Of a stretch of 64,000 nucleotides of DNA, positions 62,326 through 62,337 are shown piece by piece. Both the position numbers and the translations under genes were made by a program. Under the pieces are notes generated by a model, which was given only the letters and a program-made list of their open reading frames with translations, had not been told where the DNA came from and made no database searches. Location: the IMG/VR virus record IMGVR_UViG_3300028840_004348; one strand, given 5' to 3'. How positions within the stretch are numbered: the stretch's first letter is position 1; the number at the start of each line of letters is the position of its first letter. This stretch comes from a virus.

Positions 62326-62337
62326 TTAATATACAAG
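62326..62337 (-). promoter_or_regulatory. Promoter-like extended -10 motif (cTTGTATATTAAc) about 28 nt upstream of the cas12-like ATG
   Basis: Same motif family as upstream of many other minus-strand genes; followed by GGGAGATTGAG RBS. Confidence 0.45.

Follow-up and report, generated by a model that had tools for sequence, protein, structure and literature searches.

The 64,000-nucleotide stretch of viral DNA held as IMG/VR record IMGVR_UViG_3300028840_004348 (referred to throughout, at its full length, as the window) encodes a large terminase (TerL, 8499-10751), tail-fibre/baseplate-like proteins, ThyX and a nucleoside deoxyribosyltransferase, a gene content that marks it as phage DNA. Two tRNA genes are also present, together with a 12-repeat CRISPR array (approximately 59.15-59.92 kb) and an adjoining gene for a Cas12-like effector. 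The window is 60% GC, and our own codon-bias gene caller, the source of the gene coordinates given here, places 93 of 94 genes on the minus strand. A GGAGG-type Shine-Dalgarno sequence (SD) precedes approximately 85 of the roughly 93 genes, and non-coding DNA amounts to 5,034 bases, or 7.9% of the total. A preliminary description of this DNA had proposed that one extended -10-like motif, listed at 16 positions, precedes at least 15 of the minus-strand genes. The motif is real, occurs far beyond chance expectation and belongs to a conserved phage promoter system; it almost certainly marks the promoters of an uncultivated phage of about 190 kb. The 16 listed sites, moreover, are not one motif but three promoter classes, designated here B (nine sites), A (four) and C (three).

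The heptamer GTATATT occurs eight times on the minus strand and not once on the plus strand, where 300 runs of a second-order Markov simulation average 0.19 copies and never exceed 2, and six of the eight copies fall in the small non-coding fraction. TATATTA is found five times, always on the minus strand, where 0.19 copies are expected and none of 100 shuffles reaches five. With the CRISPR repeat set aside, no 7-mers of the window are more over-represented than GTATATT and the extensions that overlap it (TATATTA, ATATTAA). Eight of the nine minus-strand TATATT hexamers are preceded by G, the ninth overlapping the TTGACA of a class A promoter, and no hexamer with the G extension lies on the plus strand. 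Motif discovery by expectation-maximization (EM) on 32 intergenic stretches, trimmed of the SD region, returned TCCTTGTATATTAA as the best motif, with 22 sites. The same EM procedure applied to the 80-100 nucleotides (nt) upstream of every gene recovered only the Shine-Dalgarno/start signal GGAGGnnTGAGATG. When the patterns of the three classes are combined, 24 matches are obtained, 19 of them non-coding and all on the minus strand. As expected of a sigma70-type -10 element, a TAnnnT-type hexamer lies upstream of genes on the coding strand. A generic sigma70 consensus scan of the window gave no enrichment; such a scan misses class A because it requires T at -7. A literature search for GTATATT returned primer sequences only.

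The window represents about one-third of a phage genome of approximately 188 kb, since the same terminase sequence is on record on a contig of 188,555 bp. Relatives were retrieved by terminase-based searches, and their TerL proteins are 87% (locus L008), 84% (L009), 81% (L005), 77% (L010, 51% GC), 67% (L001-L003) and 56% (L011) identical to that of the window. Loci L001-L003 derive from a 192-kb IMG/VR contig, and L016 is a second region of the L001 contig. Copies of GTATATT on the coding and opposite strands number four and zero in L008, six and zero in L009, three and zero in L010, three and zero in L016, and four and one in L001, where the opposite copy lies at 8196. At orthologous class B promoters the motif is invariant and the flanks have diverged, the exact 7-mer being kept in alignments of 61-67% mean identity. 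Promoters of classes A and C, too, are kept at orthologous gaps. GTATATT is absent from other high-GC phages with which ThyX alone is shared. A megablast of the window against GenBank phages gave no match; the nearest GenBank phage is Rctr197k (KX853510.1, L014), whose terminase is 38% identical, and there the window motif is absent and a different motif is used. Rctr197k carries nine copies of TGGCAC-N5-(T/G)GCTATAAAGTGAGnCATG, located at approximately 129.9-142.0 kb (+) and at 15584 (-), that match the sigma54 -24/-12 consensus. In these copies an ATG lies about 3 nt after the predicted start, which suggests sigma54-dependent, nearly leaderless phage genes in Rctr197k. Sigma54 promoters (-24/-12; TGGCAC-N5-TTGCW) were also considered for the window and rejected, as it yields two weak matches only, one on the minus strand at a gene boundary and one on the plus strand.

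Each of the 16 listed positions does carry an AT-rich, -10-like element on the minus strand, although the one given as 8443 is about 9 nt off (TGATATACT spans 8460-8452); the idea of a single motif was nevertheless not borne out. Nine of the sites read G-TAT[A/C/G]TT (class B), four read TGA-TATAnn (class A), and three read TGA-TA[T/C/G]A[C/T]T behind an upstream box (class C). Class A combines TTGACw, a spacer of 17 nt and TGn-TATAnn, that is, a canonical -35 with an extended -10. In class C, a TT[T/A]AG[A/G] box (TTTAGAAA-type) takes the place of the -35 and is followed by N14-18 and TGn-TA[T/C/G]A[C/T/G]T. Class B consists of a pyrimidine tract, an invariant G at -13 and TATATT (G-TAT[A/C/G]TT), with no -35. 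The earlier statement that there is no conserved -35 consequently holds for class B but fails for seven of the 16 listed sites, namely the four of class A, three of which have TTGACw at 17 nt, and the three of class C. Similarly, the suggested extended -10 (TGn) is a feature of classes A and C and not of class B, the sites of the Cas12 type included, which carry the invariant G at -13 instead. Placement 15-30 nt before an ATG, with GGAGG in between, describes about ten of the 16 sites; the gap is 6 nt at 11830, where there is no SD, and 107 nt at 59111, 52 nt at 8443, 45 nt at 35431 and 33 nt at 46789. Five sites had been overlooked: 34600 (class B), 23584 and 21416 (class C), and 25232 and 40955 (class A), the last preceding a tRNA-Cys gene.

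The class B consensus runs from pyrimidines at -21 to -15 through K at -14, G at -13, TATATT at -12 to -7 and R at -6 to Y-1/R+1. Its position statistics pool 29 GTATATT sites from the window and its relatives, a figure that overstates the sample size because many of the sites are orthologous and not independent. At position -15, 13 sites have C and 16 have T; at -14, 13 have G, ten T, five C and one A. C occupies -16 in 19 sites and T occupies -17 in 18, while -6 is a purine in 24; no column is conserved from -41 to -22. Counted from the end of the hexamer, 27 of the 29 have a purine as the seventh base and 21 have a pyrimidine as the sixth, columns that serve as sequence proxies for Y-1/R+1 and that played no part in site selection. 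In the window alone, the seventh base is a purine at seven of eight sites. At spacings of 16-19 nt, no GTATATT or TATCTT site matches TTGACA at more than three of six positions, the only class B exception being the doubtful TATGTT site at 59119, which has ATGACA (5/6) at an atypical spacing of 19 nt. The T-15 G-14 of a TGn extended -10 is not a feature of class B, where only TGG-TATATT sites such as 11841 possess it.

The strongest single argument that the motif is a -10 element on DNA rather than an RNA signal is the leaderless geometry at the head of the terminase operon. There, at 11827-11850 (-) (class B, site 11841), TCTGG-TATATT is followed after 6 nt by ATG 11829, the start of a gene for a protein of 266 amino acids (aa). 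In six phages (the window, L001, L005, L008, L009 and L010), TATATT is separated by exactly six non-conserved nucleotides from an ATG without SD. Alignment of the upstream regions (61% mean identity) leaves as invariant columns C25, T28, T37, the GTATATT core and the ATG. In five of the six phages an in-frame stop is found 24 nt before that ATG, the six proteins align from Met1 through a conserved CKLC motif, and the independent gene calls of the collection begin at the same ATG. With the hexamer at -12 to -7 and 6 nt after it, +1 coincides with the A of the start codon, the classical leaderless arrangement. The sequence evidence strongly supports the prediction that the terminase-operon mRNA is leaderless, a possibility already raised for 11829/11830 in the preliminary description and upheld by the spacing kept in all six phages. 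Leaderless mRNAs of Actinobacteria and Deinococcus-Thermus have a TANNNT -10 located 6-7 nt upstream of the start codon, just as TATATT and the SD-less ATG are arranged here; unlike in those lineages, a leaderless start is exceptional in this phage. A possible second case is ATG 23569, 7 nt after the class C hexamer of the promoter at 23577-23607.

The class B element of the Cas12-like effector gene, located at 62326-62342 (-) (site 62333), reads ggTTCTTG-TATATT-AA and lies 30 nt before ATG 62297 with a GGAG SD in between. It is a perfect class B site and the top-scoring one in the EM search, in agreement with the original report that the effector gene carries the motif. The effector itself (60099-62297 (-), 732 aa) has a Cas12f1-like TNB domain and adjoins the CRISPR array. 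Among solved structures, Cas12m (23vw_A, E = 3.5e-47) is closest, with Cas-phi/Cas12j (7odf_A, E = 1.5e-4) also matched, and the nearest homologues in a large protein collection are only 27-29% identical. No close effector homologue with upstream DNA, on which conservation of the 62326 promoter could be judged, was present in the collections, the relatives being too distant or truncated. The same promoter class serves thyX, a DHH phosphoesterase gene, the terminase operon and other genes, and it is reasonable to conclude that the effector uses a general phage promoter rather than a dedicated cas promoter. With at least three promoter classes present, the further claim of expression with the bulk phage programme is too coarse. 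An effector behind an ordinary -35-independent phage promoter bears on the question of when the phage deploys its own CRISPR system. The 12-repeat array is bracketed by a 38-nt inverted repeat whose arms (59102-59139 and 60053-60090) are 89% complementary, and one arm holds the promoter-like TGTATGTT site listed as 59111. In a Logan assembly of the same phage (L007/L048) the array appears collapsed or shorter, as approximately 380 nt separate the flanking genes instead of about 1,090 nt.

Further class B elements, all on the minus strand, are distributed along the window. That of thyX (37698-37714, site 37705) reads CTCCTCCTG-TATATT-GA and lies 21 nt before ATG 37678; TTCTCTCGG-TATATT-AA at 29749-29765 (site 29756) lies 24 nt before ATG 29726; and CTTCTCTG-TATATT-AA at 14994-15010 (site 15001) lies 27 nt before ATG 14968, with orthologous copies at L008 5701 and L009 5661 and probably at L010 6253 and L001 5773. 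Two variants carry TATCTT. ATCCTG-TATCTT at 23198-23214 (site 23205), 18 nt before ATG 23181, is kept in L008 (gap 376-409), and TTCTTG-TATCTT-GA at 7694-7710 (site 7701), 17 nt before ATG 7678, has orthologues that read GTATATT (L008 13056, L009 13459). A copy not listed previously, GCACCGG-TATATT at 34592-34608 (site 34599), lies within the 3' end of gene 34513-35382 and 77 nt before ATG 34516 of the DHH phosphoesterase gene. GAACTG-TATATT-GA at 48482-48498 (site 48489) is inside gene 48382-48855. This intragenic copy, given as 48484 and considered a possible coincidence in the preliminary description, is less likely to be coincidental than was supposed, with about 0.17 copies expected in coding DNA. 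The class B-like variant CACTG-TATGTT-GA at 59112-59128 (site 59119), 107 nt before ATG 59006, is of uncertain promoter status because it falls within an arm of the inverted repeat that brackets the CRISPR array.

The remaining listed class B element, at 12900-12916 (-) (TATATT, site 12907), stands at the 5' end of a 656-nt region (12382-13037 (-)) just upstream of the terminase operon, the DNA of which is kept in L008, L009 and L010. Comparison with the relatives revealed no conserved open reading frame (ORF) in this region, and no Rfam match was obtained. A small ORF after the promoter at 12908 was rejected as a gene, its ATG lying 31 nt downstream without an SD and its length and sequence differing among relatives. 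Short AGAATTCT-type repeats occur within the region, and some 25 nt beyond the predicted start lies an inverted repeat, ATCG-N5-CGATG, that is conserved. The region may represent a non-coding RNA or else serve as a site of packaging or replication.

Class A alone displays the canonical -35/-10 arrangement of sigma70 promoters, with TTGACT or TTGACA at 17 nt at 46788, 35433, 21789 and 25228. The pattern TTGAC-N15-17-TGnTA occurs four times on the minus strand and never on the plus strand, against 0.09-0.48 expected. The individual elements, all on the minus strand, are TTGACT, 17 nt, TGA-TATAGG (46783-46811); TTGACT, 17 nt, TGA-TATAAG (35428-35456), upstream of a helix-turn-helix (HTH)/coiled-coil gene (34513-35382); TTGACA, 17 nt, TGA-TATATA (21784-21812), the orthologue of which in L008 (gap 1825-1883) has TTGACA and TGG-TATATA; and a class A-like element, previously unlisted, with TTGACA, 17 nt and CGA-TATAAG (25223-25251). 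A weaker one at 40702-40725 (site 40707), TGA-TATAGA with a poor -35 (2/6), lies 28 nt before ATG 40673. Also absent from the earlier list is the element at 40945-40974 (site 40950), with TTGACA, a spacer ending in TGA and TAGACA, upstream of tRNA-Cys (40839-40911 (-)). This tRNA gene, which possesses its own TTGACA/TGn promoter, is assigned the unusual anticodon ACA by ARAGORN; the anticodon of bacterial tRNA-Cys is normally GCA.

Where 0.02 matches to the class C pattern are expected, five occur (sites 27241, 23582, 22740, 21412 and 8457), every one of them in non-coding DNA on the minus strand, with TTTAGA or TTAAGA as the upstream box at the listed sites. These promoters comprise TTTAGAAA, N16, TGA-TACATT-AA (27236-27267); TTTAGATT...TGA-TACATT (23577-23607, not listed before); TTAAGATT...TGA-TAGATT-AA (22735-22765); TTTAAGAA, N14, TGC-TATAGT (21407-21437, also new), which heads an operon into tail-fibre/baseplate-like genes and is kept in L008 (gap 2202-2263); and TTTAGAAA, N14, TGA-TATACT (8452-8482), kept in L008 at 12303 and with the same architecture in L009 (gap 12266-12362) and L010 (2990). 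Class C, alone of the three, is analogous in architecture to the middle promoters of T4, which combine a MotA box near -30 with a good -10: both have a non-TTGACA box, here TTTAGAAA centred near -33, and in class C the -10 is TGn-extended. The box sequence differs from that of T4, and no MotA or AsiA homologues were found.

The enrichment, strand specificity, intergenic placement, orthologous conservation and fixed geometry described above are shown by the sequences; the sigma factor that reads these promoters, and the time at which it does so, are inferred. The core T-12 A-11 T-10 A-9 is common to all three classes, which is consistent with recognition by a single sigma region 2. Judged from the sequences, these -10-type promoters are probably read by a sigma70-family holoenzyme, class B in a -35-independent manner. 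Region 2 of such a sigma factor would melt TATATT, and transcription would begin 7 nt further on, a position that at the terminase operon is occupied by the A of the ATG, so that the mRNA there would be leaderless. Class B would work without contact between sigma region 4 and a -35 element. The reader would most probably be the host primary-sigma holoenzyme, perhaps after a phage factor has disabled -35 recognition, as gp39 does in the Thermus phage P23-45; class B would then be a middle/late-type class. Class A, a textbook host-type promoter, is fit for unmodified host RNA polymerase (RNAP). In P23-45, gp39 displaces sigma region 4 and shuts off -35/-10 promoters, whereas the middle/late promoters, which have no -35, stay active and are read by the host sigma-A holoenzyme (PMC3950348). 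Like P23-45, the present phage has -35/-10 promoters beside a -35-less class with a strong -10, a predicted start at primary-sigma spacing, and AT-rich promoter islands in a GC-rich genome. Unlike in P23-45, the extension of class B consists of G-13 and the pyrimidine tract and not of T-15 G-14, and no gp39-like factor was identified.

A number of observations weigh against reading by the host primary sigma. The motif is confined to one phage sub-clade, the members of which range from 51 to 62% GC, and this confinement would be compatible with co-evolution of the recogniser and the phage lineage. Promoters read by a dedicated phage factor, more typically than generic host promoters, combine a near-invariant 7-mer with a conserved pyrimidine tract. 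The position of its conserved G, at -13, also sets class B apart from the canonical TGn extended -10 and so leaves no ready account of the contact that replaces the -35. Class A hexamers are mostly without T at -7, and the limited independence of the 29 pooled sites, noted above, belongs here as well. As for the host, a TerL search in genome bins gave mutually discordant hints, pointing to Kiritimatiellae on the one hand and Desulfatiglandales on the other among metagenome-assembled genomes. Pfam and PHROGs searches on essentially all proteins of the window (64 kb, about one-third of the genome) found no sigma factor or RNAP gene, and PDB sequence searches with three large window proteins were empty; a phage sigma factor or RNAP may, however, be encoded in the roughly two-thirds of the genome outside the window.

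A more novel reading, to which we give a rather low probability, is that class B is a lineage-specific class read through a specificity factor of the phage. This factor would be a divergent sigma that recognizes only a -10, or else a protein that remodels sigma and thereby creates the G-13/pyrimidine-tract requirement. If so, one dedicated temporal switch would govern the phage-borne, DNA-binding Cas12m-like effector with its CRISPR array, together with nucleotide metabolism and the leaderless terminase operon. A dedicated phage sigma in particular stays a serious rival because of the G at -13, the near-invariant 7-mer and the restriction to one sub-clade. In its explicit form, rather unlikely in our estimate, class B would be read by a phage-encoded -10-only sigma on host core RNAP, in the manner of T4 gp55 or phiEco32 gp36, with classes A and C as host-sigma classes. 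Phages of 160-190 kb often encode their own sigma factors. The core of class B is near-invariant, extends from -17 to -5 and lacks a -35, its G lies at -13 rather than at the canonical TGn position, and the sub-clade distribution over 51-62% GC points the same way. T4 late promoters (TATAAATA) are recognized by gp55 together with gp33 and the gp45 clamp, and the gp36-dependent promoters of phiEco32 read TAATGTATA; like both, class B is a highly conserved -10-only element of 8-10 bp without a -35 that stands before many phage genes. Its sequence, however, differs from either, it shares its TATA core with the phage's own -35/-10 promoters of class A and with class C, and the spacing from hexamer to predicted start is exactly that of primary-sigma promoters. 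No gp55-like or gp36-like protein, nor any sigma match to Pfam or PHROGs, is found in the window, and none is seen among the Pfam-annotated genes of the related loci, although divergent phage sigma factors are easily missed by searches.

Recognition of class B by a phage RNAP, whether multisubunit (phiKZ/AR9-like, virion or non-virion) or single-subunit, appears improbable. The genome size of about 190 kb speaks in its favour, and promoters of this kind offer a resemblance: early promoters of the AR9 virion RNAP read AAATATATATTAT-(6N)-G and contain TATATTAT, starts in phiKZ and phiR1-37 lie 6 nt downstream, and promoters of the phiKZ-related virion RNAPs are conserved AT-rich blocks (PMC5312081). 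Here, too, an AT-rich block containing TATATT is followed at a fixed distance by the predicted start. The conserved block of class B is nevertheless shorter than that of phiKZ-type or T7-type promoters, and the AR9 register would put the start on the G of the leaderless ATG, destroying the start codon. No beta/beta'-like or T7-like RNAP was detected in the window and none is annotated in Rctr197k, and the coexistence of canonical TTGACA/TGn promoters with class B indicates that the phage uses host RNAP. It is more doubtful still that the motif acts in RNA, as an AU-rich translational enhancer, a regulatory-protein site or a processing site in polycistronic mRNAs. Strand specificity and a position always upstream of start codons would suit such a role, as would the SD-less set, in which the motif occupies the place of a ribosome-binding signal. 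Yet the distance from motif to start codon varies from 6 to 107 nt, usually with a separate strong GGAGG in between, and one copy precedes the region without a conserved ORF. In addition, the purine at +7, the pyrimidine at +6 and the exact 6-nt spacing before SD-less ATGs are sequence signatures expected of a transcription start site, and classes A and C place DNA-level -35 boxes at promoter spacing beside the same core. A chance or compositional artefact, finally, would see in the motif nothing but AT-rich islands of a 60% GC genome, intergenic DNA being generally more AT-rich than coding DNA. We reject it, giving it next to no probability: no simulation or shuffle reaches the observed counts, the strand bias is complete (eight against zero), and the exact 7-mer survives at orthologous sites in alignments that have otherwise diverged.

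In our favoured reading by a sigma70-family holoenzyme, the G-13 register that replaces TGn offers a small, testable point on how -35-less promoters are recognized. The three classes and the conserved leaderless start together provide a regulatory map for an uncultivated clade of 160-190-kb phages with Cas12m-like CRISPR systems; the promoter system is otherwise what would be expected of a large lytic phage.

Several features of the window lie beside this argument. Unusually for a phage, a 917-aa protein (30770-33523 (-)) matches both the shoulder domain of the major vault protein (E = 3e-26) and a vault repeat domain (E = 1e-9); searches for related loci with this vault-like protein and with a 534-aa protein found nothing. 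GATC is over-represented across the window, at 8.5 per kb versus 3.6 expected from base composition, and GATCY occurs at -25 to -23 in eight of 32 class B sites. A stereotyped stop-start junction, GGAGGnnTGAGATG, joins many genes (for example at 63361, 54965 and 49907) and suggests translational coupling along long operons. Three candidate transcription regulators are encoded on the minus strand: a protein with a LexA-type DNA-binding domain (28199-28606, E = 5e-21), the HTH/coiled-coil protein behind a class A promoter (34513-35382), and a 450-aa protein with two weak C-terminal HTH matches just downstream of the CRISPR array (57654-59006).

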